A stretch of DNA of 44,905 nucleotides from an uncultured Candidatus Saccharibacteria bacterium (GCA_964522615.1 CAZFWR010000001.1:1-44905), one strand, 5' to 3'. Positions 1,347 through 41,921 are shown, counted from the stretch's first letter. Numbers and translations: made by a program. Notes: generated by a model from the letters alone, not told the origin.

Positions 1347-2225
1347 TCAAGTGTTTTTTCCTATTTCCAAAACCACAATTTCCTTTTCTAAGGAAATTCC
1401 GAACTGGCGCTTAACTCTCGTTTCAATTTCTTCTATCAAAGCAAGGACTTGGCCGCTTCGCGCCCGGCCCAGGTTAACAATAAAATTAGCGTGACGGGAA
1501 GAAACTTGAGCCTGGCCAATTTTTCTTCCCTTCAAACCCGCTTGTTCAATTAACCAACCCGCTGGAGCTAGAGCTGGATTCTTAAAAATACTGCCGGCCG
1601 AAGGAAAATTCAGGGGTTGTTTTCTTCTCGCTTCTAAATAATTAGCTATCCGGGCCTCTATCTCTTTTAAGGGAGCCGGGGTTAATTTTAAACTAGCTGA
1701 GGAAATAATTAGCTCTGGGTGTTTCTGAAAGATACTCCGGCGGTAGCCAAACTGGCAATCAGCCGGAGACAATTCTTGGAAGCTTAATGTCTCCTGGTTA
1801 AAAACCCTCACTTTCTCCAAAACCCCGCTAAGATATTCTTCTTTCGTTCCAGCATTGCCCCTAATCGCTCCGCCTAAAAGGCCGGGGATTCCGGCCGCCC
1901 ATTCTAATTCTGACAATCCTCTTCCGCGAGCCTCTTCCACTAAAAAAGGAAGAGGGACTCCGGCTTCTGCCTTAACCCGATTCTTTTGCCAATTAACCTG
2001 CCCCAAAGATATTTTCACCACTAAACCCGGAAAGCCTTTATCGGGAATTAAAAGATTAGTCCCTCCACTCAAAACGAAAAGAGGGAGGCCTCTTTCTCTC
2101 GCTTTCTTGACTGTTGCTTCTAATTCTTCTTCAGAAAAAACCGAAGTAAAAAACCTTGCCCGTCCCCCAATTCGAAAACTAGTCAATGGCTTTAAAGAAA
2201 CATTTCTCTTCCAGTCCTTAATCAT
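1347..2225 (-). CDS. murB: UDP-N-acetylenolpyruvoylglucosamine reductase
   Basis: 292 aa. FRIGGRA, SGGTNLL and AGSIFKNP motifs typical of MurB. 8-nt overlap with the upstream gene. Confidence 0.9.
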   Translation of the reverse strand: MIKDWKRNVSLKPLTSFRIGGRARFFTSVFSEEELEATVKKARERGLPLFVLSGGTNLLIPDKGFPGLVVKISLGQVNWQKNRVKAEAGVPLPFLVEEARGRGLSELEWAAGIPGLLGGAIRGNAGTKEEYLSGVLEKVRVFNQETLSFQELSPADCQFGYRRSIFQKHPELIISSASLKLTPAPLKEIEARIANYLEARRKQPLNFPSAGSIFKNPALAPAGWLIEQAGLKGRKIGQAQVSSRHANFIVNLGRARSGQVLALIEEIETRVKRQFGISLEKEIVVLEIGKNT

Positions 2226-3948
2226 CTTGAGAACAACTGCTTAATAATGTGTTGGCTTTCTCCCGCGTTCGGGGACCGAAAATCCCTGTCCCTTGAGTAA
2301 GCCCTAAGGGCTGAAGAATTTCTCCAGAGTACTTTTCCTGAAAACGTTTTACTGCCTCTTGGGTCAACGCTAGAAAATTACCCGTTACCAATCCCGCCGA
2401 ATAGATTTCCTCTCCCTGGGCCCGAAGGAAAACCTGTAAGGCCCTTACCTCTTCTTCTTCCCCCCGGCCGAAGGAAAGATTGTTTTCCCAAGGCTGCCAA
2501 ATCATTCCCTCCCGAGCTATTAAAAGACAAGCTAATTGAGCGCGCAAATCTTCAATCTGAACCTTTAATTGGCTGATAGTTTGCTGTAATTCTTCTTTCT
2601 TTCTTTCCTCAACCGCGGTTGGATTAGTGGTTACTTCCCAGAAAAAAGCATAAGGAGTTTCCCGGCCATTAAATCCGGAAACTTTGCTTTGGACAGAAGG
2701 AATAATGGTTAAAGAGTTAACCTCGGAACCGAAATTGGGAATTTCCAATCGGCCTTGCTGGCTAGTATCCAGCTCCAAGAAGACAGTATTAATTTCTCCG
2801 TTCTTCATTTCTAAGACATAAGGAAGCTGGAAAAGATTTTCCGAACTACCAATAAACCGCAAAGTTAAGTCCCCCTCCCCACCGATAAAACGAATCCACT
2901 TCCCGGCCCAATGTTTTGTCTGGTCGGTGGAAGAAAGACTACTTTTCCCGGTCAGAGGGAGAAAATAAGTTTTGGGCGTTACCCGAAGATTTTGGAGAGC
3001 GGAATCAAGATAACAATAGCGAGCATCAATCTGGCAATCATTAAGATAAGAAGCAATTGTCCAATCGGTAAAGACATCAGAAAAATTTGCCGCCCAATTA
3101 TTTTTTTCCAGGGCCTCATCTAAGGCGGCAATTCCCGTTTGAGAAGAATGGAGAGAATCAACCAAAATCTCTATTCCATAATGCTCTACCAGATATTGGG
3201 TAAAAATATTCAGGGCTCCGTAATCTGCCTGCTCTTCCTGCCATTCCACTAAAGAATCGTTAGGATAAGAGAGGAAAAGCTTTGCTCTTCGCTGTAAATT
3301 ACTTCCTTCATAAATTTGGTCATAGCCCAAAAGAGTGGGAGTATATTCTGCTCGGGCTTCATTTAGCCAGACCTCTTCTACCACCCTCATCTTCCTATTC
3401 TTCTGGTTATAGGTCAGAAGATGAGTTAATTCGTGAGCCAATAAGCTCCGGACATAATTACTCGGCAGATAATCAGCGTTCAAATAAATCATTTCTCGCT
3501 CGTTAGAACTCGGGCTTTGCAATTTCTCATGTTCATCAAGCGGCCGGAAATAACCGCCGCTTTCCTCTTGCAGAGGATGGAAAAGGATAGTCAGGCGCAA
3601 ATCATTATCTAGGCCCGGCTTCCATTCAGAACCATAAACAGAAGTTAAACCAGGATAAATTTTTTCGTCAAACTCCGCTCCTAAAGATTGTAAAAAAGTT
3701 TCATTCTTTTCCTGTTCCTCTGGGGAGAGCTCATTCTTCCACTCCTGGTCAACAATGAAGTAAGCATGCTGGGAGCGGTAGCTTAACTCGCCCAGAATTT
3801 CTTCCCTTCCCCTCTTGTCCATTGAAGAATCAACAAAAAAAGAAACCGCTTCTGGTTTCTCGGCAGCTAAAGCTGCGAAACTCGGCAGCCAAAGCCCCCA
3901 AATTCCTAAGATAAGAAAAAGAAAAATATTTTTCCGAAAATGTTTCAT
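2218..3948 (-). CDS. Secreted gluzincin-type metallopeptidase with C-terminal peptidoglycan-binding domain
   Basis: 576 aa. Signal peptide MKHFRKNIFLFLILGIWGLWLPSFAALAAE. LAHELTHLL (HEXXH) followed 20 residues later by VWLNEARAEY (the WLNE glutamate of MA(E)/M1-like peptidases). Coiled-coil segment ELQQTISQLKVQIEDLRAQL. C-terminal EVRALQVFL...GNFLALTQEAVKRFQ...GIFGPRT resembles PG_binding_1. Confidence 0.6.
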   Translation of the reverse strand: MKHFRKNIFLFLILGIWGLWLPSFAALAAEKPEAVSFFVDSSMDKRGREEILGELSYRSQHAYFIVDQEWKNELSPEEQEKNETFLQSLGAEFDEKIYPGLTSVYGSEWKPGLDNDLRLTILFHPLQEESGGYFRPLDEHEKLQSPSSNEREMIYLNADYLPSNYVRSLLAHELTHLLTYNQKNRKMRVVEEVWLNEARAEYTPTLLGYDQIYEGSNLQRRAKLFLSYPNDSLVEWQEEQADYGALNIFTQYLVEHYGIEILVDSLHSSQTGIAALDEALEKNNWAANFSDVFTDWTIASYLNDCQIDARYCYLDSALQNLRVTPKTYFLPLTGKSSLSSTDQTKHWAGKWIRFIGGEGDLTLRFIGSSENLFQLPYVLEMKNGEINTVFLELDTSQQGRLEIPNFGSEVNSLTIIPSVQSKVSGFNGRETPYAFFWEVTTNPTAVEERKKEELQQTISQLKVQIEDLRAQLACLLIAREGMIWQPWENNLSFGRGEEEEVRALQVFLRAQGEEIYSAGLVTGNFLALTQEAVKRFQEKYSGEILQPLGLTQGTGIFGPRTREKANTLLSSCSQDD

Positions 3949-3985: not shown

Positions 3986-4045
3986 CCATAATAATGTTAA
4001 TTCAACATAATAATGTTAAATTTAACATAATAATGCTAAATTCAA
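3986..4045. repeat. 3 x 20-bp tandem direct repeat (CATAATAATGTTAAATTCAA-like) upstream of the metallopeptidase gene
   Basis: Units at 3986-4005, 4006-4025 and 4026-4045, differing by 1-3 nt. They lie 38-97 nt upstream of the minus-strand ATG at 3948. On the minus strand each unit starts with TTGAAT/TTAAAT (-35-like). Confidence 0.8.
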
Positions 4046-4053
4046 CGAATTTT

Positions 4054-5005: not shown

Positions 5006-5464
5006 CTAGGCCTCTTTCTTCTTTTCCGAAGAAACCGCCGTTGCTTCTTCTCCCTGCTTCACTGCCTCCTCTTTCTTCTCTGCTGTCTTCTCTTTCTTCT
5101 CTGCTGTCTTCTCTTTTTTCTCTGCTGTCTCCTCTTTTTTCTCCTGGCCTTCAGAGGCTACCGCTTTCGAAGCCGTTACTGGTTCTTCCGGCTGACTCTT
5201 CTTTCGGGCATGAACAGCTTTTTTCTTCCCGGATAAAATTCCTTCATCAATAAGCCAGTTATAAACTCGGTCGGTTGGTTGAGCCCCAACTGATAACCAA
5301 TACTTAACTCTTTCCGCCTCTAATTTCCTTTCTTTTGTCAAAGGGTTCAGCCAGCCTAATTTTTCGAATCTTCCCCCTTGAGGAGGAGAATTTTTATCAA
5401 CAACGACCAACCTAAAAAAAGGCTGATTCTTTTTACCGATTCTTTGGAAGCGAATTCTTAACAT
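5006..5464 (-). CDS. rpsP: 30S ribosomal protein S16 with K/E-rich repetitive C-terminal extension
   Basis: MLRIRFQRIGKKNQPFFRLVVVD...YWLSVGAQPTDRV is canonical S16. About 60 extra C-terminal residues contain TAEKKEK x3. Confidence 0.9.
   Translation of the reverse strand: MLRIRFQRIGKKNQPFFRLVVVDKNSPPQGGRFEKLGWLNPLTKERKLEAERVKYWLSVGAQPTDRVYNWLIDEGILSGKKKAVHARKKSQPEEPVTASKAVASEGQEKKEETAEKKEKTAEKKEKTAEKKEEAVKQGEEATAVSSEKKKEA
5078..5140. repeat. 3 x 21-bp in-frame tandem repeat inside rpsP (encodes TAEKKEK x3)
   Basis: CTCTGCTGTCTTCTCTTTCTT-like units start at 5078, 5099 and 5120 (exact 21-nt period). Confidence 0.85.
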
Positions 5465-7019: not shown

Positions 7020-7640
7020 TTATTTCCTTTGCCAATAGCTCTTGAAAGTTTGGCGATGAATACGACAAAAACCAAGGGTTTCCAGGGCTTGACAATGCTC
7101 TTTCGTCCCATATCCCTTGTGCCGTTTAAAATTGTAGACTGGGTAAAGAGAATGATAATGGACCATCCATCGGTCACGCCTCACTTTAGCAATAACAGAA
7201 GCAGCCGCCACCGAGAAAATCTTCTCATCCGCTTTAACTAAAGAACGTTGCTCTAATGGCCAAGAAATCGACAATCCGCCGTCTAAGATTAAGAAATCAA
7301 CCGGGGATAATTTTCGCACGACTTGCTTAATGGCTCGCTCTATCGCTTTCACAATACCAACTTGGTCTATCACCCGGGCTGAAGAAGAAGCAGCCGCCCA
7401 AGAAAGACAGCTAGCCCGCGTCAATGGTGGATAAAGAGCTTCCCTTTGCCGGAAAGTTAGCTTTTTTGAATCCCGCACTTCCTTTAATTTCGGAGGAACT
7501 TTCTCCAGTCCGGGTTGAAGCAATACTCCGACCACTGTCACCGGCCCGGCCAAAGCTCCCCGGCCAACTTCATCAATGCCTACCACTCTTTGGTATCCCT
7601 GGCGCCATAAACTTTTCTCTAAACGCAAATCGGGTTTCAC
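7020..7640 (-). CDS. rnhB: Ribonuclease HII
   Basis: 206 aa, GTG start. VVGIDEVGRGALAGPVTV and DSKKLT motifs of RNase HII. Confidence 0.9.
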   Translation of the reverse strand: MKPDLRLEKSLWRQGYQRVVGIDEVGRGALAGPVTVVGVLLQPGLEKVPPKLKEVRDSKKLTFRQREALYPPLTRASCLSWAAASSSARVIDQVGIVKAIERAIKQVVRKLSPVDFLILDGGLSISWPLEQRSLVKADEKIFSVAAASVIAKVRRDRWMVHYHSLYPVYNFKRHKGYGTKEHCQALETLGFCRIHRQTFKSYWQRK

Positions 7641-7657
7641 AAATGGTTTGTAAAATT

Positions 7658-7775
7658 CTGTAAACTGGATTATAATAATCCATAGGATTCTTAAAAGCCT
7701 GTAAACAGGATTATAATAACCCGTAGGGTTCTTAAAAGTCTGTAAACAGAATTATAATAATCCATAGGATTCTCC
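7658..7775. repeat. About 2.9 x 41-bp tandem repeat in the divergent rnhB / dnaE-operon intergenic region; each unit carries a TATAAT-containing palindrome
   Basis: CTGTAAAC anchors at 7658, 7699 and 7740 (exact 41-nt period). Each unit contains GGATTAT-A-ATAATCC (e.g. 7667-7681), which reads TATAAT on both strands, plus AATCC-ATA-GGATT. Confidence 0.85.
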
Positions 7776-7826: not shown

Positions 7827-8525
7827 ATGAAAGTAGCTCCTATTCAAACTGAACTTGATCCTCAAAAAGTCGTTGCTCAAGGAGCGATAGAAACAATAAT
7901 TAGAAAAGCTGAAGCTACTGGGCAGCCAGCCAATTTTTCTCACCGGATCATTCCCTCTGTCCATCTCACTAATCGAAAAATAGAAACTAGCCTCAATTTT
8001 CAGGGAGCTACTATTCTTGGTCCGGTTGCTTTCCGAGAAGTAGTTATCAACGGCGACCTCAATCTCCAGGAAACCATTATCAAAGGAGCCCTTTACCTGG
8101 AAGGAAGCATTATTCGGGGCTCTTTCAATCTCCAGCAAGCAGTGGTCCGGGGGGTTATTAATTTGGTCGGAGCCCAGATTAAAGGAAACCTTAACGGCCA
8201 ACAGTTGACCAATAGCGGTTTTATCAGCTTAGCTAAGGCTCAAATCGGAAAAAATCTAAACCTGCAGGGGATAAGGATTGAAGACGCTGATTACGAAGGA
8301 TTAATTATTCGGGGAAATCTTTATCTGCGCGGCATTATTCTCAATGGAGCCCTTCATCTGGAAAAAGCAAGCGTTAGCGGTTCGGTTGATCTCGTTCAGG
8401 CTTTAATTCTTGGAACAGCAGATCTGACCGGCATCTCTATTAAGGATTATCTTATTCTTCGCCAAGCTTCTCTAGAAAACGGGTTAGTGCTTGAAGGCGC
8501 TCGCTACCGGGAATTGGTAAAATGA
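7827..8525 (+). CDS. Pentapeptide-repeat protein
   Basis: 232 aa. From about residue 55 onward there are continuous 5-residue repeats (NFQGA TILGP VAFRE VVING DLNLQ ETIIK GALYL EGSII RGSFN LQQAV ...). The stop overlaps the dnaE start (ATGA at 8522-8525). Confidence 0.7.
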   Translation: MKVAPIQTELDPQKVVAQGAIETIIRKAEATGQPANFSHRIIPSVHLTNRKIETSLNFQGATILGPVAFREVVINGDLNLQETIIKGALYLEGSIIRGSFNLQQAVVRGVINLVGAQIKGNLNGQQLTNSGFISLAKAQIGKNLNLQGIRIEDADYEGLIIRGNLYLRGIILNGALHLEKASVSGSVDLVQALILGTADLTGISIKDYLILRQASLENGLVLEGARYRELVK

Positions 8526-29495: not shown

Positions 29496-30476
29496 TTAAT
29501 CTTTTCTAAGCTGAAGATGAAACTTTTTCAATCCCTGCTCTATTTCCTTTACCCCCTTTTCCCCCAAACCTTCCAAAGCTAAAAGTTTTTCTCGACTCTT
29601 GGCAACCAACCCCGCTACTGTCTTGAAATGGCCGTCTAGAAGAACCTTTTTTAGCCTCGGAGACCAGTCTAGGTCCTCAATCTTGGAGTTTTTTCCTACC
29701 ACCAGTTTTTTCTTCTTCTGGGGTTTTCCCTTCTTCTGGAGTTTTTCTTTTTTCTGGGACTTTTCTTTTTTCTCCGAAACTATTTTTTCTTCCTCCTGGA
29801 GATAGTTTCCAAAAATAGCTAGATGCTCTTGCAAAATTGCTATCGCCTGGCTTAAAGCTTCACTAGGAGAAATAGTCCCGTCAGTAGCAATTCCCAAAAG
29901 CAAGCGGTCAAAGTCCGTTCGTTTGCCAACCCTCATCTTTTCTGCTTGGTAAAAAACTTTTTCTACTGGAGAAAAGAGACTGTCTATAAGAATTTCTCCG
30001 ATCGCCGCCTTCTCCTCTTCCCTTTGCTCCACTGATTGATAGCCAACTCCTTTTTCAATCCTTAATCTTCCAACCAGTTTTGCTTTCTGGCTCGTAAGAG
30101 TAGCTAATCTTTGTTCCGGATTGGTAATTTTTACTTGGGAAGGAAGAGAAAGATCTTTTCCGCAGGATTCTTTCTTTCCCTTAATTTCGAAATGCCCTTC
30201 CTGCGGCTCATCGCTAGTAACTTTAAATCTTAACTTTTTAAAATTAAGAATAATCTGGACAACGTCTTCTTGAATTCCCGGTATAGTAGAAAATTCATGA
30301 GGAACGCCTTCAATTTGCAAGCTAGTTACAGCGGCTCCTTCCAGGGAAGAAAGGAGAATTCTCCGCAGAGTATTCCCCAAAGTTGCCCCGTAACCGGGAT
30401 AAAGCCCTTCTATTTCGAAAGTGGCCTGATGACCTTCTTGAGAAATAATTTTAATGGATTGAGGTAAAGGTATCAT
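29496..30476 (-). CDS. rpoA: DNA-directed RNA polymerase alpha subunit with K-rich repeat linker
   Basis: NTD (GYGATLGNTLRRILLSS) and CTD HhH (IEDLDWSPRLKKVLLDGHFKTVAGL). The start is taken at MIPLPQ (30476), 4 nt after the rpsD stop; the ORF track extends to 30500. Confidence 0.9.
   Translation of the reverse strand: MIPLPQSIKIISQEGHQATFEIEGLYPGYGATLGNTLRRILLSSLEGAAVTSLQIEGVPHEFSTIPGIQEDVVQIILNFKKLRFKVTSDEPQEGHFEIKGKKESCGKDLSLPSQVKITNPEQRLATLTSQKAKLVGRLRIEKGVGYQSVEQREEEKAAIGEILIDSLFSPVEKVFYQAEKMRVGKRTDFDRLLLGIATDGTISPSEALSQAIAILQEHLAIFGNYLQEEEKIVSEKKEKSQKKEKLQKKGKPQKKKKLVVGKNSKIEDLDWSPRLKKVLLDGHFKTVAGLVAKSREKLLALEGLGEKGVKEIEQGLKKFHLQLRKD
29716..29769. repeat. 3 x 18-bp in-frame tandem repeat in the rpoA NTD-CTD linker (KSQKKE KLQKKG KPQKKK)
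   Basis: TTCTGG anchors at 29716, 29734 and 29752 (exact 18-nt period). Confidence 0.8.
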
Positions 30477-30480
30477 AATA

Positions 30481-31104
30481 TCAACGAGAATAAAATTCAA
30501 AAATAGTAAGAATATTAGCCGGGGGATTAACTTCTTCTAAAGTTGGCCAACGTAAAATCCCTCCTTCTAACCCTTGGGGGTTAATCTCCAACCAAGTAGA
30601 ACCTTCCTTTTTCTTCAGCCTTTCCCCTACTTCTTGGAAAAGAGCCATTTTCTTGCTCTTTTCTCTCACCGCTATTTTAACCCCCGGTTTCAGCTGATAG
30701 GAAGGCCGGTCAACTTTTTTTCCATTAACCAAGAAATGCCCGTGGCTGACCAATTGTCTCGCCCGTCCCCGAGAATCAGCCAACCCCAGCCGGTAAACAA
30801 TATTATCCAGCCGACCTTCTAATTCCTGGATGAGAAACTGGTCTCGGTTTCCTTGGGAGGGACGCCTTAAAGCTTTATCAATATAACGGTGGAACTGTTT
30901 TTCTTTCAAGCCGTAAAAAAATCTCAGCTTTTGCTTTTCGGCTAACTGACGTCCGTATTCAGAAACCTTTCTTCTTCTTTTATCATTCCTTCTTGTATTA
31001 GAAGATTTTCGCGCCAATGGACACTTAGCCGTAAAACACTTATCTCCTTTCAAGAAGAGTTTTTGGTCAAAGCGCCGACAAATTTTACACTGGTTATTTC
31101 TCAT
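30481..31104 (-). CDS. rpsD: 30S ribosomal protein S4 (zinc-finger form)
   Basis: 207 aa. CKICRR...CFTAKCP; YGLKEKQ; S4 RNA-binding domain RLDNIVYRLGLADSRGRARQLVSHGHFLVNGKKV. Confidence 0.95.
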   Translation of the reverse strand: MRNNQCKICRRFDQKLFLKGDKCFTAKCPLARKSSNTRRNDKRRRKVSEYGRQLAEKQKLRFFYGLKEKQFHRYIDKALRRPSQGNRDQFLIQELEGRLDNIVYRLGLADSRGRARQLVSHGHFLVNGKKVDRPSYQLKPGVKIAVREKSKKMALFQEVGERLKKKEGSTWLEINPQGLEGGILRWPTLEEVNPPANILTIFEFYSR

Positions 31105-31108
31105 ACTA

Positions 31109-31204
31109 ATTGCTATTAAGAGGCTTTCTTAAGACTCATAATCGCTATTAAGAGGCTTTCTTAAGACTCATAATCGCTATTAAGAGGCTTTCCTAAGACT
31201 CATA
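31109..31204. repeat. 3 x 32-bp tandem repeat filling the rpsK-rpsD junction; each unit is a 7-codon mini-ORF
   Basis: Units at 31109-31140, 31141-31172 and 31173-31204, with one substitution each in units 1 and 3. Minus-strand unit: TATGAGTCTTAAGAAAGCCTCTTAATAGCGAT. Confidence 0.9.
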
Positions 31205-31208
31205 ATTT

Positions 31209-32057: not shown

Positions 32058-32101
32058 TTATCCTTGTCTTTGTTTATATTTTTATCCTTGTCTTTGTTTA
32101 T
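32058..32101. repeat. Perfect 20-bp duplication (24-bp period) of the rpmJ 3' end including its stop codon
   Basis: TTATCCTTGTCTTTGTTTAT at 32058-32077 and at 32082-32101. On the minus strand this reads ATAAACAAAGACAAGGATAA twice. Confidence 0.9.
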
Positions 32102-32195
32102 GTTTCGGATTCTTGCAAATAACATAGATCCGCCCTTTCCGCCGAACTATTTTACAGTCTTTGCACATTTTTTTTACTGAAGAGCGAACTTTCAT
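32082..32195 (-). CDS. rpmJ: 50S ribosomal protein L36
   Basis: Below the ORF-track cutoff. The minus strand gives [37 protein letters not shown], canonical L36. Confidence 0.9.
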
Positions 32196-32232
32196 ATTAT
32201 AATTATATTAGAATATCTCTTCTTAGAATATA

Positions 32233-38371: not shown

Positions 38372-39117
38372 AATAAAGTTGTTAAAATTTGCGGTCCCTG
38401 GGAAGTAACAGCTATCATCTGTTCAAAATGAGCAGTGAGAGAACCGTCAACCGAACGATAACTGAAGCCATCTTCTCCCAGTTCAATTTCGGTAGAACCA
38501 AGACTAACAATTGGCTCGATACAAATAACCAAACCGGGCTGAATTATCAAACCTTCGCCCTTCTTCCCAAAATTAAAAACGGTGGGGTCTTCGTGTAATT
38601 CTCGGCCGATGCCATGGCCGGTTAACTCCTTCACCACTCCCATGCCCTGCTGGACAACATAATCTTCAACGGCAAAACCAATATCTCCTAAATGATTGCC
38701 GGTCCGAGCGGCTTTTATTCCCCAATAAAGAGCTTCTCGGGTAACCGTTATTAATTTCTGGGTTAAAGGAGGAATGGGCCCCACTCCAATAGTAGTCGCT
38801 ATATCCGCCTGGAATCCTCTATACTCTAAGCCTAAATCAAGAGAAAGAATATCACCGGATTGTAATTGATATTCTCCCGGCAATTGATGGACAGCCACTT
38901 CATTTACTGATGTACATAAAGCAGCTGGAAATCCTTCATAATTTTTAAAATTCGGCTTTCCGCCTTCAACAGTAATTAATTTCTCGGCTAATTGGTCTAA
39001 TTCTTTGGTCTTCATCCCCGCTTTAACTTCATTCTGAAGTTTCTTCAAAATGCGAGCCAGCTTCCTTCCTGCTTCCCCCATCTTCCTTATTTCTTTTTCG
39101 CTCTTCAGCTGAATCAT
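38368..39117 (-). CDS. map: Methionine aminopeptidase type I
   Basis: 249 aa. Metal ligands in SLDLG..., GHGIG and CIEP contexts. Confidence 0.95.
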   Translation of the reverse strand: MIQLKSEKEIRKMGEAGRKLARILKKLQNEVKAGMKTKELDQLAEKLITVEGGKPNFKNYEGFPAALCTSVNEVAVHQLPGEYQLQSGDILSLDLGLEYRGFQADIATTIGVGPIPPLTQKLITVTREALYWGIKAARTGNHLGDIGFAVEDYVVQQGMGVVKELTGHGIGRELHEDPTVFNFGKKGEGLIIQPGLVICIEPIVSLGSTEIELGEDGFSYRSVDGSLTAHFEQMIAVTSQGPQILTTLL

Positions 39118-39704
39118 TCTAATTTCAAGGCTTTAACCAGGGCTTGATAAACATCCTTAATCGGAGGAAGGGCGTCAATTTCAATTAATAACCCCCGCCG
39201 GCGATAATCTTCAATAACAGGCAGAGTCTGCTTTCGGAACCAAGTCCATTTTTGATTTAAAGCAGTCAGAGTATCATCCTTTCTTTTTCTCCCTTCTTTT
39301 GCCAAGACACGTTTTTTGGATTCTCCATAATCAATATTAAAATAAACGACTCGGTATTGATTCATCCAGTCGTACCAGTCAAGCCCGGAATCAATAAGGC
39401 GAACCTCAAAAGGAGCGCGGGGGCTACCGTCAATAATCAAACCTGAAAATGGAGAAAAATTTTTCACTCTCTCCATTTCTTCTTCCCAAAGATCAGCCAC
39501 TACCAAACTGGAAACCAGCCTCCCTTCTTTTAGGCATTCCTTTACTTTCTTTCCTGTAAAATCAATTTTTTTAGCCCTTTGGCGCAGCAAATCTCCACTC
39601 CCAATATAGGCAAAACCAAATTTCTCTATCAACCGCCTGGATTGGGTTCCCTTTCCGCCGCCGGAAGGCCCTAAAAAACTTAAAACAAGACTAGAAGCTT
39701 TCAT
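39114..39704 (-). CDS. adk: Adenylate kinase
   Basis: P-loop FLGPSGGGKGTQ; GSGDLLR. The start is taken at MKASSL (39704). The ORF-track N-terminal 19 codons are read through the 32-bp repeats and overlap secY. Confidence 0.85.
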   Translation of the reverse strand: MKASSLVLSFLGPSGGGKGTQSRRLIEKFGFAYIGSGDLLRQRAKKIDFTGKKVKECLKEGRLVSSLVVADLWEEEMERVKNFSPFSGLIIDGSPRAPFEVRLIDSGLDWYDWMNQYRVVYFNIDYGESKKRVLAKEGRKRKDDTLTALNQKWTWFRKQTLPVIEDYRRRGLLIEIDALPPIKDVYQALVKALKLE

Positions 39705-39705
39705 A

Positions 39706-39769
39706 ATTACTATTAAGAGGCTTTCTGAAGACTCATAATTACTATTAAGAGGATTTACCAAGACTCATA
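39706..39769. repeat. 2 x 32-bp tandem repeat of the same family as 31109-31204, spanning the secY stop and abutting the adk start
   Basis: Units at 39706-39737 (3 mismatches to the 31-kb unit) and 39738-39769 (about 6 mismatches). The secY TAA (39755-39757) lies inside unit 2. Confidence 0.85.
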
Positions 39770-41035: not shown

Positions 41036-41470
41036 TTATTTTTTAATCTTGCCTCCTACTTTCTCTACTTTTTCCCGAGCCGCTTGAGAAAGGCGGCAGT
41101 TCTCAAAAGTTAAGGCTTCCTTTACTTCTCCAGAAGACAAAATCTTCACTATCTTTTTCTTTCCCGAAGGGAAAGAAAGAAGCCCTTTTTCCTTTAAAGT
41201 TTGGGGGTTAACTACCTCCCCGGTAGTGAACTTCTTGACCACCTCCTTTAGTTGAAGAGCGGTCGTCTCCTTACAAGAAGAACGAAAGCCGATTCCTTTC
41301 AATTTCGGATAACGCTTAATCAAAGGACGAATTGAAGGTTCAAAATTTGCCCCCGATCGGGATTTTTGGCCTTTAATCCCCCGGCCGGAGTAAGTTCCTT
41401 TTTTACCTCCTCGACCGACACGTTTTTTAGTCGGACGAGATTGCTTGGATTTTATCTGATTTAGCTGCAT
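41036..41470 (-). CDS. rplO: 50S ribosomal protein L15
   Basis: MQLNQIKSKQSRPTKKRVGRGGKKGTYSGRGIKGQKSR. Confidence 0.9.
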   Translation of the reverse strand: MQLNQIKSKQSRPTKKRVGRGGKKGTYSGRGIKGQKSRSGANFEPSIRPLIKRYPKLKGIGFRSSCKETTALQLKEVVKKFTTGEVVNPQTLKEKGLLSFPSGKKKIVKILSSGEVKEALTFENCRLSQAAREKVEKVGGKIKK

Positions 41471-41921
41471 AGTCTTTTAATTGTTGAAAAGCATCAAGAG
41501 TTGCCCGGGCGATATTCAAGCTGTTTTTAGAACGAGAAAGGACTTTGGCCGAAAGAGATTCCACCCCGGCCAATTGGCAGAGGACTCGGACCGTTGCTCC
41601 CGCTGACAAACCCCCTCCGGCCTTAGGCCGAAAAAGAATCCGGGAAGCCCCTGCTTTGCCAGTCACGGAACAGGAAATCGTTCCCTTATTTATAGGAACA
41701 ACAAAGAGGGTCTTTTCTGCCAGCCGCTTTGCTTTGCTAATCGCTTCCCGAACACTAAGGCCTTTCGCCACTCCTAGGCCCACCCGGCCTTTTTGGTCAC
41801 CGACAACCACCACTGCCCGAAATCTTAGCCGCCTTCCCCCCGCCGCTACTCGAGTCACCCGGTTTAAGTCCAAAACGTGAGATTCCAACTCATTGACATT
41901 TTTAGTTCTTGGTTTCATCAA
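41427..41921 (-). CDS. rpsE: 30S ribosomal protein S5
   Basis: VLDLNRVTRVAAGGRRLRFRAVVVVGDQKGRVGLGVAK... The 3' end overlaps rplO by 44 nt. No rpmD (L30) in between. Confidence 0.9.
   Translation of the reverse strand: MMKPRTKNVNELESHVLDLNRVTRVAAGGRRLRFRAVVVVGDQKGRVGLGVAKGLSVREAISKAKRLAEKTLFVVPINKGTISCSVTGKAGASRILFRPKAGGGLSAGATVRVLCQLAGVESLSAKVLSRSKNSLNIARATLDAFQQLKDYAAKSDKIQAISSD

Follow-up and report, generated by a model that had tools for sequence, protein, structure and literature searches.

The intergenic region between rpsK (S11) and rpsD (S4) in the 44,905-nt stretch of DNA analysed here (hereafter the window), which derives from an uncultured Candidatus Saccharibacteria bacterium, is filled by three head-to-tail copies of a 32-nt unit belonging to a lineage-specific family of small dispersed repeats, possibly of REP-like (palindromic) origin. 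The explanation that we favor, with a probability of roughly 55%, is that the unit is a VNTR resembling the MIRUs of mycobacteria, probably mobile, which has been expanded by slippage and is tolerated because ribosomes stop and restart in it without harm to the genes downstream. The element would then probably be, for the most part, a tolerated, selfish repeat of variable number and not a dedicated regulator, and its copy number may incidentally tune the translation of the genes that follow.

Tandem Repeats Finder places the rpsK-rpsD repeat at 31107-31206 (period 32, 3.1 copies, 97% matches, score 186), and the consensus 32-mer is matched on the minus strand by each of the three units (Table 1), against an expectation of 0 matches in dinucleotide-preserving shuffles. 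The 104-nt gap is made up of AAAT, three times 32 nt, and TAGT, and reads on the minus strand GTC TAA, AAAT, 3 x TATGAGTCTTA(A/G)GAAAGCCTCTTAATAGC(G/A)AT, TAGT, then ATGAGAAAT. This bears out what a sequence-only reading of the region had described, namely that three units fill the whole junction, that each of them reads ATG AGT CTT A(A/G)G AAA GCC TCT TAA TAG and thus offers a seven-codon mini-ORF, MSL(K/R)KAS, with a double stop, and that the rpsD ATG stands, with a 3-nt indel, where a fourth unit would begin. A scan for sigma-70 promoters and intrinsic terminators gave nothing within the array, and a tandem-promoter interpretation was dropped because it contains no promoter-like site. The RNA fold of the whole array is unremarkable (z = -0.71). 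Rfam, searched at the gathering threshold or E <= 1, returned only a tRNA at another place in the window and an SmY match attributable to chance. The identities of S11, S4, SecY, Adk, RpoA, S13, L36 and IF-1 in the window are supported by Pfam, and an exact look-up of the window's S4 returned no record.

Table 1. Repeat units, adjoining gene boundaries and a candidate relic in the window, numbered from its first letter
Feature	Position	Strand	Sequence	Remarks
Unit 1, rpsK>rpsD	31173..31204	-	TATGAGTCTTAGGAAAGCCTCTTAATAGCGAT	1 mismatch to consensus; mini-ORF MSLRKAS, then TAA TAG
Unit 2, rpsK>rpsD	31141..31172	-	TATGAGTCTTAAGAAAGCCTCTTAATAGCGAT	0 mismatches; MSLKKAS
Unit 3, rpsK>rpsD	31109..31140	-	TATGAGTCTTAAGAAAGCCTCTTAATAGCAAT	1 mismatch; followed by TAGT, then the rpsD ATG
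rpsK (S11) stop TAA	31209..31211	-		5 nt upstream of the unit 1 ATG
rpsD (S4) ATG	31102..31104	-		fourth-unit register with a 3-nt insertion; TATGAG common to gene and units
Unit 1, secY>adk	39738..39769	-	TATGAGTCTTGGTAAATCCTCTTAATAGTAAT	6 mismatches to consensus; first 15 nt are the SecY C-terminus (YESW) and stop
Unit 2, secY>adk	39706..39737	-	TATGAGTCTTCAGAAAGCCTCTTAATAGTAAT	3 mismatches to consensus
secY stop	39755-39757	-		inside unit 1 of secY>adk
adk ATG	39702..39704	-		exact register of the next unit's ATG; actual start, 196 aa
Candidate degenerate hairpin-subtype relic, infA>rpmJ gap	32196..32232	-	GATATTCTAATATAAT	family has GATATTCTAATAGTAAT; compared with L032 units; weak call, no HMM score

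The same family occurs, as had also been noticed, at a second site in the window (39706-39769), where two units lie between secY and adk on the minus strand. Unit 1 of this pair seems to have been co-opted to encode the C-terminus of SecY: its loop variant GGTA is found in three lineages (those of the window, L034 and L035), in which SecY ends in ...YE(S/N)W* versus the ancestral ...YESF*, and the secY stop is supplied by the unit as TGG TAA. The SecY end YES(F/W), together with AAAGCYTCT and AGTCTT in adk, is no more than suggestive of an origin of the unit from the secY/adk overlap. In a mechanical ORF listing, adk (39114-39761) has its start moved to a TTG inside unit 1, which lengthens the product to 215 aa. 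All five units of the window, three at rpsK-rpsD and two at secY-adk, have an intact ATG...TAA mini-ORF, and in each the first stop (TAA, with TAG next in frame) is separated by 8 nt from the ATG that follows; the rnc>rpsP junction of the window carries no unit.

Co-directional genes in the window are typically separated by -8 to +5 nt, and the gaps of 104 and 50 nt are outliers in this respect. SD-like motifs (GGAG, GAGG or AGGA at -20 to -4) were found for five out of 45 window genes, compared with 15% of random 17-mers, in agreement with the earlier statement that the genes here lack SD motifs. The rpmJ>rpsM gap of the window consists of 24 bp from the 3' end of rpmJ, stop included, that are duplicated in tandem (32058-32105, minus strand; ...KHKQRQG* then KYKQRQG*), and the corresponding junction of the related contig L032 has three 32-nt units in its place.

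To define the family we scanned GTDB species genomes and JGI metagenomes with the exact pattern ATGAGTCTT-N8-CTCTTAATAG, which gave seven loci, spread over two MAGs that carry the label 'uncultured Candidatus Saccharibacteria', and 14 metagenome contigs, respectively, and further copies were collected from contigs with S4 homologues (graded relatives), by iterative HMM searches and by PWM segmentation. The resulting set comprises 73 distinct units and 26 scorable arrays in front of approximately 21 different genes, and is spread over at least six related Patescibacteria (CPR) lineages; no match was found in the viral contigs scanned. The loci of the pattern scan include the junctions rpoB>rpoC, infA>rpmJ, X>yebC, (terminator-like hairpin)>trmD, rnc>rpsP and rpsK>rpsD, the 5' region of a LysM/M23 peptidase gene, and two further genes, and at these loci the final unit ends in ...TAATAGTAAT directly 5' of the (T)ATG of a real gene. 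Every one of the 26 arrays is co-oriented with, and abuts the ATG of, a real ORF, co-orientation alone having a p of ~5e-7, and the offset of the gene's ATG from the last unit is +1 in 23 arrays and +2, +4 or +9 in the rest. The random placement with respect to genes and strands that a generic REP- or MITE-like element would show, and that the sequence-only reading had contrasted with its own proposal, is thus not seen. In L012 two convergent genes are each preceded by a single unit in the gene's own orientation, and unit orientation therefore tracks the gene and not the direction of replication. Arrays are head to tail with one to seven or more copies directly adjacent to each other, without the spacers that would make them CRISPR arrays. 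Several upstream genes end on the TGA of a unit-supplied ATGA (infA, S11 in L008, and genes in L014 and L015). The trmD array, in turn, follows a terminator-like hairpin, and the M23 peptidase gene, itself monocistronic or the first of its operon, has its array in the 5' region; no upstream ribosome is expected at either place, and coupling is therefore not the whole story.

Copy number varies among close relatives, although the counts are taken from assemblies of short reads, in which several arrays of L032 are interrupted by runs of N. At rnc>rpsP, contigs with identical flanks carry four units (L006), three (L019) or one (L020). At rpsK>rpsD, the three units of the window correspond to a single one in strains whose S4 is 99% (L022, L023), 94% (L036) or 93% (L024, L025) identical; lineage B has two (L007) or one (L009, L021), lineage C, L034 and L035 have one, and L032 has three. 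At secY>adk, four, two or no units were seen. The single rpsK>rpsD unit of L024 and L025 has its ATG mutated to AGG, and that of L036 has at its 5' side the variant seen in window unit 1 (AGG) and at its 3' side that of window unit 3 (GCAAT), a mosaic such as unequal recombination within a three-unit array should yield. At one extreme, L032 has arrays at at least 13 junctions in 20 kb; at the other, L026-L031 keep the gene order of the window and have no unit in 20 kb, while their S4 (75% identical to that of the window) is nested by identity among unit-bearing lineages. The S11-S4 junction of L026 is GTCTAAAATTATGAGAGAT, without any unit, and its secY and adk genes overlap by 14 nt, the empty site being GAATATGAAAGCTTCTAA. 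Between a filled and an empty site the difference is an integral number of units, which have 3-7 nt of TATG(A)(G) at their flanks, so that an array should easily be lost without a scar when a unit recombines with the start of the gene itself. L032 also has, upstream of infA, a different and longer tandem repeat (7999-8334, unit roughly GTTACTTTAACAGGGTATTCGTTGTTAAAGCAACAGGAGTAATCGACA) that fills the gap and has an assembly gap inside.

As to what is conserved within the unit, the 12-nt A/U-rich tail TCTTAATAGTAAT is nearly invariant and brings two or three in-frame stops, positions 29-31 being TAA or TAG in 61 of the 73 units, and most units contain a stop codon in every reading frame. A5 and A14 do not vary in the family, and close copies differ at positions 11-13 and 17-18. 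The hairpin pointed out by the sequence-only reading, TTAAGA with TCTTAA (positions 9-14 and 20-25), is present in window units 2 and 3; it is not conserved in the family, where it has no compensatory changes and pairs no more often than in shuffles. A different stem, imperfect and of 7 bp (4-10 with 15-21, around a 4-nt loop at 11-14), does covary: it is paired in 78.7% of cells, as opposed to 67.7 ± 1.0% in shuffles and 33-57% in slid controls, and has 61 double-change cells versus 21.5 ± 3.4 in shuffles (0/500 reach 61), with compensatory pairs such as GAAGATC/GATCTTC, GAACATC/GATGTTC and GAATATC/GATATTC; the rows compared are related sequences, and the stem is a matter of pair counts, RNAalifold having given no consensus structure for 70 units. 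Taken by itself, the 31-nt AGG subtype folds stably into an 8-bp stem (-7.7 to -9.8 kcal/mol, z -2.7 to -4.4), whereas the ATG subtype of the window reaches only ~-3 kcal/mol and does no better than shuffled sequence. Mismatches in the stem are A·C versus G·U at about 15 to 5, an excess which does not favor a stem in the sense RNA and which is confounded by the decay of ATG to ATA at position 4. The compensatory changes suggest that a structure is recognized by something, a feature that would be superfluous in a purely neutral repeat.

The sequence-only reading knew of no described equivalent, but one exists in the MIRUs described by Supply et al. (1997), mobile mycobacterial repeats that insert at start codons and whose internal ORF is coupled to the gene (as summarised in PMC12548453, PMC3184786). 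MIRUs are 40-100 bp long and occupy 40-50 loci; filled sites show tetranucleotide direct repeats, the orthologous sites of M. leprae are empty, and the elements serve for VNTR typing (PMC12548453, PMC3184786). The present family resembles them in forming tandem direct repeats within operons, all arrays being head to tail on the gene strand; in lying at the start codon, with the gene's ATG at most 9 nt away where it is not at +1; in having a small ORF placed for translational coupling with the flanking genes; in the short direct repeats by which filled and empty sites are told apart; and in copy-number polymorphism between strains together with empty orthologous sites (4/3/1 units at rnc>rpsP, 3/2/1/0 at rpsK>rpsD and 4/2/0 at secY>adk). 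There are also differences. The ORF of MIRUs overlaps the next start by 4 nt, whereas here the mini-ORF ends 8 nt before the ATG, a partial match being the overlap of upstream stop and unit ATG at the ATGA junctions of infA, S11 in L008, L014 and L015. Since 32 is not a multiple of 3, successive mini-ORFs change frame, unlike in MIRUs; nearly half of the family's units have no ATG, and one subtype is a clean hairpin. The genomes of mycobacteria are GC-rich, and the host here belongs to a Patescibacteria/CPR clade without SD usage. The unit is A/T-rich and 31-32 nt long, compared with ~40-100 bp for MIRUs (PMC3184786), and the two are likened by description, without any expected relationship in sequence and with no claim of homology. 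A literature search found no description of such repeats in Patescibacteria.

According to the MIRU-like explanation, units would persist only immediately 5' of start codons and in the orientation of the gene, and in hosts without SD, whose genes normally overlap or nearly touch, a unit there would be translationally transparent. On a transcript presumably shared by the genes on both sides, ribosomes from the upstream gene would terminate in or shortly before the array and would then be passed to the real start, either by re-initiation at the mini-AUGs, with 8 nt from stop to start, or by scanning across units that have no AUG; the gene would finally be preceded by the customary 'stop, AATT, ATG' junction, restored by the tail of the last unit. 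The efficiency of termination-reinitiation drops with distance, and 8 nt is within the range of efficient coupling (PMC12548453). Given the intact mini-ORFs and 8-nt hops in all five window units, such a hand-over is a plausible way in which the array of the window may be tolerated. Arrays would expand and contract when units recombine with each other unequally or through strand slippage; an array could disappear scarlessly, TATG(A)(G) of the gene itself serving as a partial unit, and new sites would be seeded at (T)TATG.

The exact anchoring, seen in front of over 20 genes, might just as well stem from a positive role in initiation, and so might the invariance of the tail. The unit might be a portable translation-initiation module of a lineage without SD, in which the stem and the A/U-rich tail, at -30 to -1, recruit or position the 30S subunit, S1 or a dedicated RNA-binding factor, and arrays act as standby sites or as a rheostat. 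Such a module, which we regard as unlikely and yet as the least unlikely of the alternatives, would account for the exact start-codon register, for the constancy of A5 and A14 and for the compensatory changes in the stem, and it would have a use for the units found 5' of first genes, a place at which coupling plays no part; many of the downstream genes are highly expressed housekeeping genes, and an analogy exists in the TAACTGA repeats beside start codons in Beggiatoaceae (PMC4679880). It is opposed by the evident dispensability of the units, a syntenic relative being empty at both junctions and strains differing in copy number, and by the fact that most genes of the window have none. The stem of the window subtype, no stabler than shuffled sequence, and the negative RNAalifold result likewise do not fit, nor does the absence of any copy in viral contigs. 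A wider version of this idea, somewhat harder still to credit, is that in one Patescibacteria clade a mobile module of 31-32 nt marks start sites in general, independently of SD, or serves as a pad for ribosome hand-over; it would have colonised most ribosomal-protein and housekeeping operon junctions in some lineages, its hypervariable copy number being a heritable rheostat (contingency locus) for the translation of essential genes.

It could also be that the family is to be understood at the level of DNA, as a REP or a hairpin derived from IS200/IS605 elements that a (T)TATG-targeting enzyme, of the Y1/HUH or another type, mobilises in trans. The anchoring at start codons would then be a by-product, because insertions within genes would be lethal (stops in all frames, and a length of 32, which 3 does not divide) and because an intergenic TTATG is nearly always a start codon. 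We consider this doubtful. The stable 8-bp stem of the hairpin subtype and its compensatory changes are in keeping with it, as are the precise insertions, flanked by TATG(A)(G), by which filled sites differ from empty ones, the excess of A·C over G·U in the stem, the mosaic presence and absence across lineages, and the occurrence of a Y1_Tnp gene in the close relative L024. Against it, the window subtype is essentially hairpin-less, the A·C excess is confounded as described above, units are head to tail only and never alternate in the manner of BIMEs, and the sole Y1 transposase seen has a different hairpin repeat at its flanks, absent elsewhere in the data. The L024 gene (3689-4414) encodes a 241-aa protein of the IS200/IS605 or RAYT-like type, is inserted upstream of a 421-aa gene preceding infA, and is absent from the window; its hairpin repeat, AAGGAGACCCGCTCTCCCAAT, is present in two direct copies upstream, one inverted copy downstream and one copy inside the gene. 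As this flanking repeat (GGAGACCCGCTCTCC) is unrelated to the unit and found only there, the L024 transposase was rejected as the mobilising enzyme, and the analysis brought to light no other enzyme for this role.

The comparison with REP/BIME elements is likewise mixed. REPs are of similar size (21-65 nt), dispersed, extragenic and variable in number, and the imperfect palindrome at 4-10/15-21 with its compensatory changes is reminiscent of them, although it is stable only in the 31-nt AGG subtype. In contrast to the fixed orientation and register found here, REPs mostly lie after stop codons, in both orientations and without start-codon register, and no cognate RAYT was found for the strictly head-to-tail arrays of this family. 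An assignment to MITEs, which have terminal inverted repeats, a TSD of fixed length and at least 50 bp, was rejected, the unit having 32 nt, no terminal inverted repeats and flanking TATG(A)(G) of 3-7 nt.

Closer in position are the TAACTGA heptamers of Beggiatoaceae, Cyanobacteria and Bacteroidetes, which as here are tandem direct repeats placed a few nt 5' of start codons, among others in front of ribosomal protein genes, and which lie in intergenic regions without canonical ribosome-binding sites and have been proposed to regulate translation; they differ in their 7-nt units, which have neither ORF nor stem, in their host lineages and in sequence, which is unrelated (PMC4679880). In bicistronic designs and leader mini-cistrons, a short ORF ending beside the real start passes on the ribosome independently of SD strength or local structure, as the mini-ORFs of the window may do, but these are single leader ORFs, designed or natural, and not a mobile multi-copy family of variable number (PMC12548453).

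The sequence-only reading had proposed a stronger role for the mini-ORFs, namely a termination-reinitiation relay that tunes the output of S4, RpoA and L17. An obligatory chain of translated mini-cistrons, selected to set this output, is in our view improbable. The five window units do all keep ATG...TAA TAG and the 8 nt from TAA to the next ATG, and in the family a stop at positions 23-25 (TAA or TAG) is kept in 39 out of 41 units with ATG, the ATG itself being commoner in gene-proximal units (23/32) than in distal ones (18/41; p = 0.02). However, the mini-ORF ATG (positions 2-4) is found in no more than 41 of the 73 distinct units, with AGG (12), ATA (10), AGA (4) and other triplets standing in its place in the remainder, and L024 and L025, so close to the window in their S4, have lost it from the one unit that they possess. 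Close strains have from one to three units at rpsK>rpsD and the syntenic L026-L031 none at either of the two junctions, with operon organisation unchanged, an outcome that the sequence-only reading had itself named as speaking against its proposal; moreover, the element is common to many unrelated genes. Changes within the mini-ORF are non-synonymous (codons 4 and 6) while synonymous sites never vary, and the peptide is therefore not under selection. What survives of the proposal is the hand-over made plausible by the intact mini-ORFs of the window, the relay being at best the way in which the element is tolerated in this particular lineage. That S4 or another ribosomal protein regulates its own synthesis through the repeated hairpins as an operator array, as had been suggested from the position of the array directly upstream of rpsD and from the role of S4 as translational repressor of the alpha operon in E. 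coli, is so improbable that it can be set aside, since the unit also precedes adk, rpoC, rpmJ, rpsP, trmD, yebC, the M23 peptidase gene and others, more than 20 unrelated genes altogether, Rfam has no match to any ribosomal-protein leader, the hairpin in question shows no covariation, and units are absent or single in close relatives.

If the MIRU-like explanation is right, start-codon repeats of this kind, which are compatible with translational coupling, arose independently in a very distant, SD-less and genome-reduced lineage, and insertion at a start codon with the element's own stop and start would then look like a general persistence strategy of small repeats in gene-dense genomes. The arrays are ready VNTR markers for the strain typing of uncultured CPR populations; they also cause assembly gaps, such as the runs of N in L032, and mislead gene callers into spurious mini-ORFs and misplaced starts, as exemplified by the extension of adk to a TTG within a unit. 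Should a functional explanation hold instead, the arrays would give a testable handle on the start of translation without SD, and as a start-site signal or rheostat they would represent a new organisation of translation initiation and expression tuning in ultra-small symbiotic bacteria.

Some other repeats and features of the window may be mentioned. A 41-bp repeat in three copies (7651-7773) lies in the divergent region between the genes at 7020-7640 (minus strand) and 7827-8525 (plus strand); each unit has a palindrome, GGATTATAATAATCC, with an embedded TATAAT, and resembles repeated operator/promoter modules. On the minus strand, a 20-bp repeat in three copies (3987-4046, TTGAATTTAACATTATTATG) is found ~40 nt upstream of the start of the gene at 2218-3948, directly after a terminator-like G-rich hairpin and T-run; its units contain ATG and are near a gene start, and their sequence is unrelated to the 32-mer. 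In-frame low-complexity tandem repeats rich in K/E are present in rpoA (29705-29773) and rpsP (5062-5143). The gene for L15 directly adjoins or overlaps that for S5 (41036-41921), the L30 gene being missing from between the two, an arrangement reported for many CPR bacteria.
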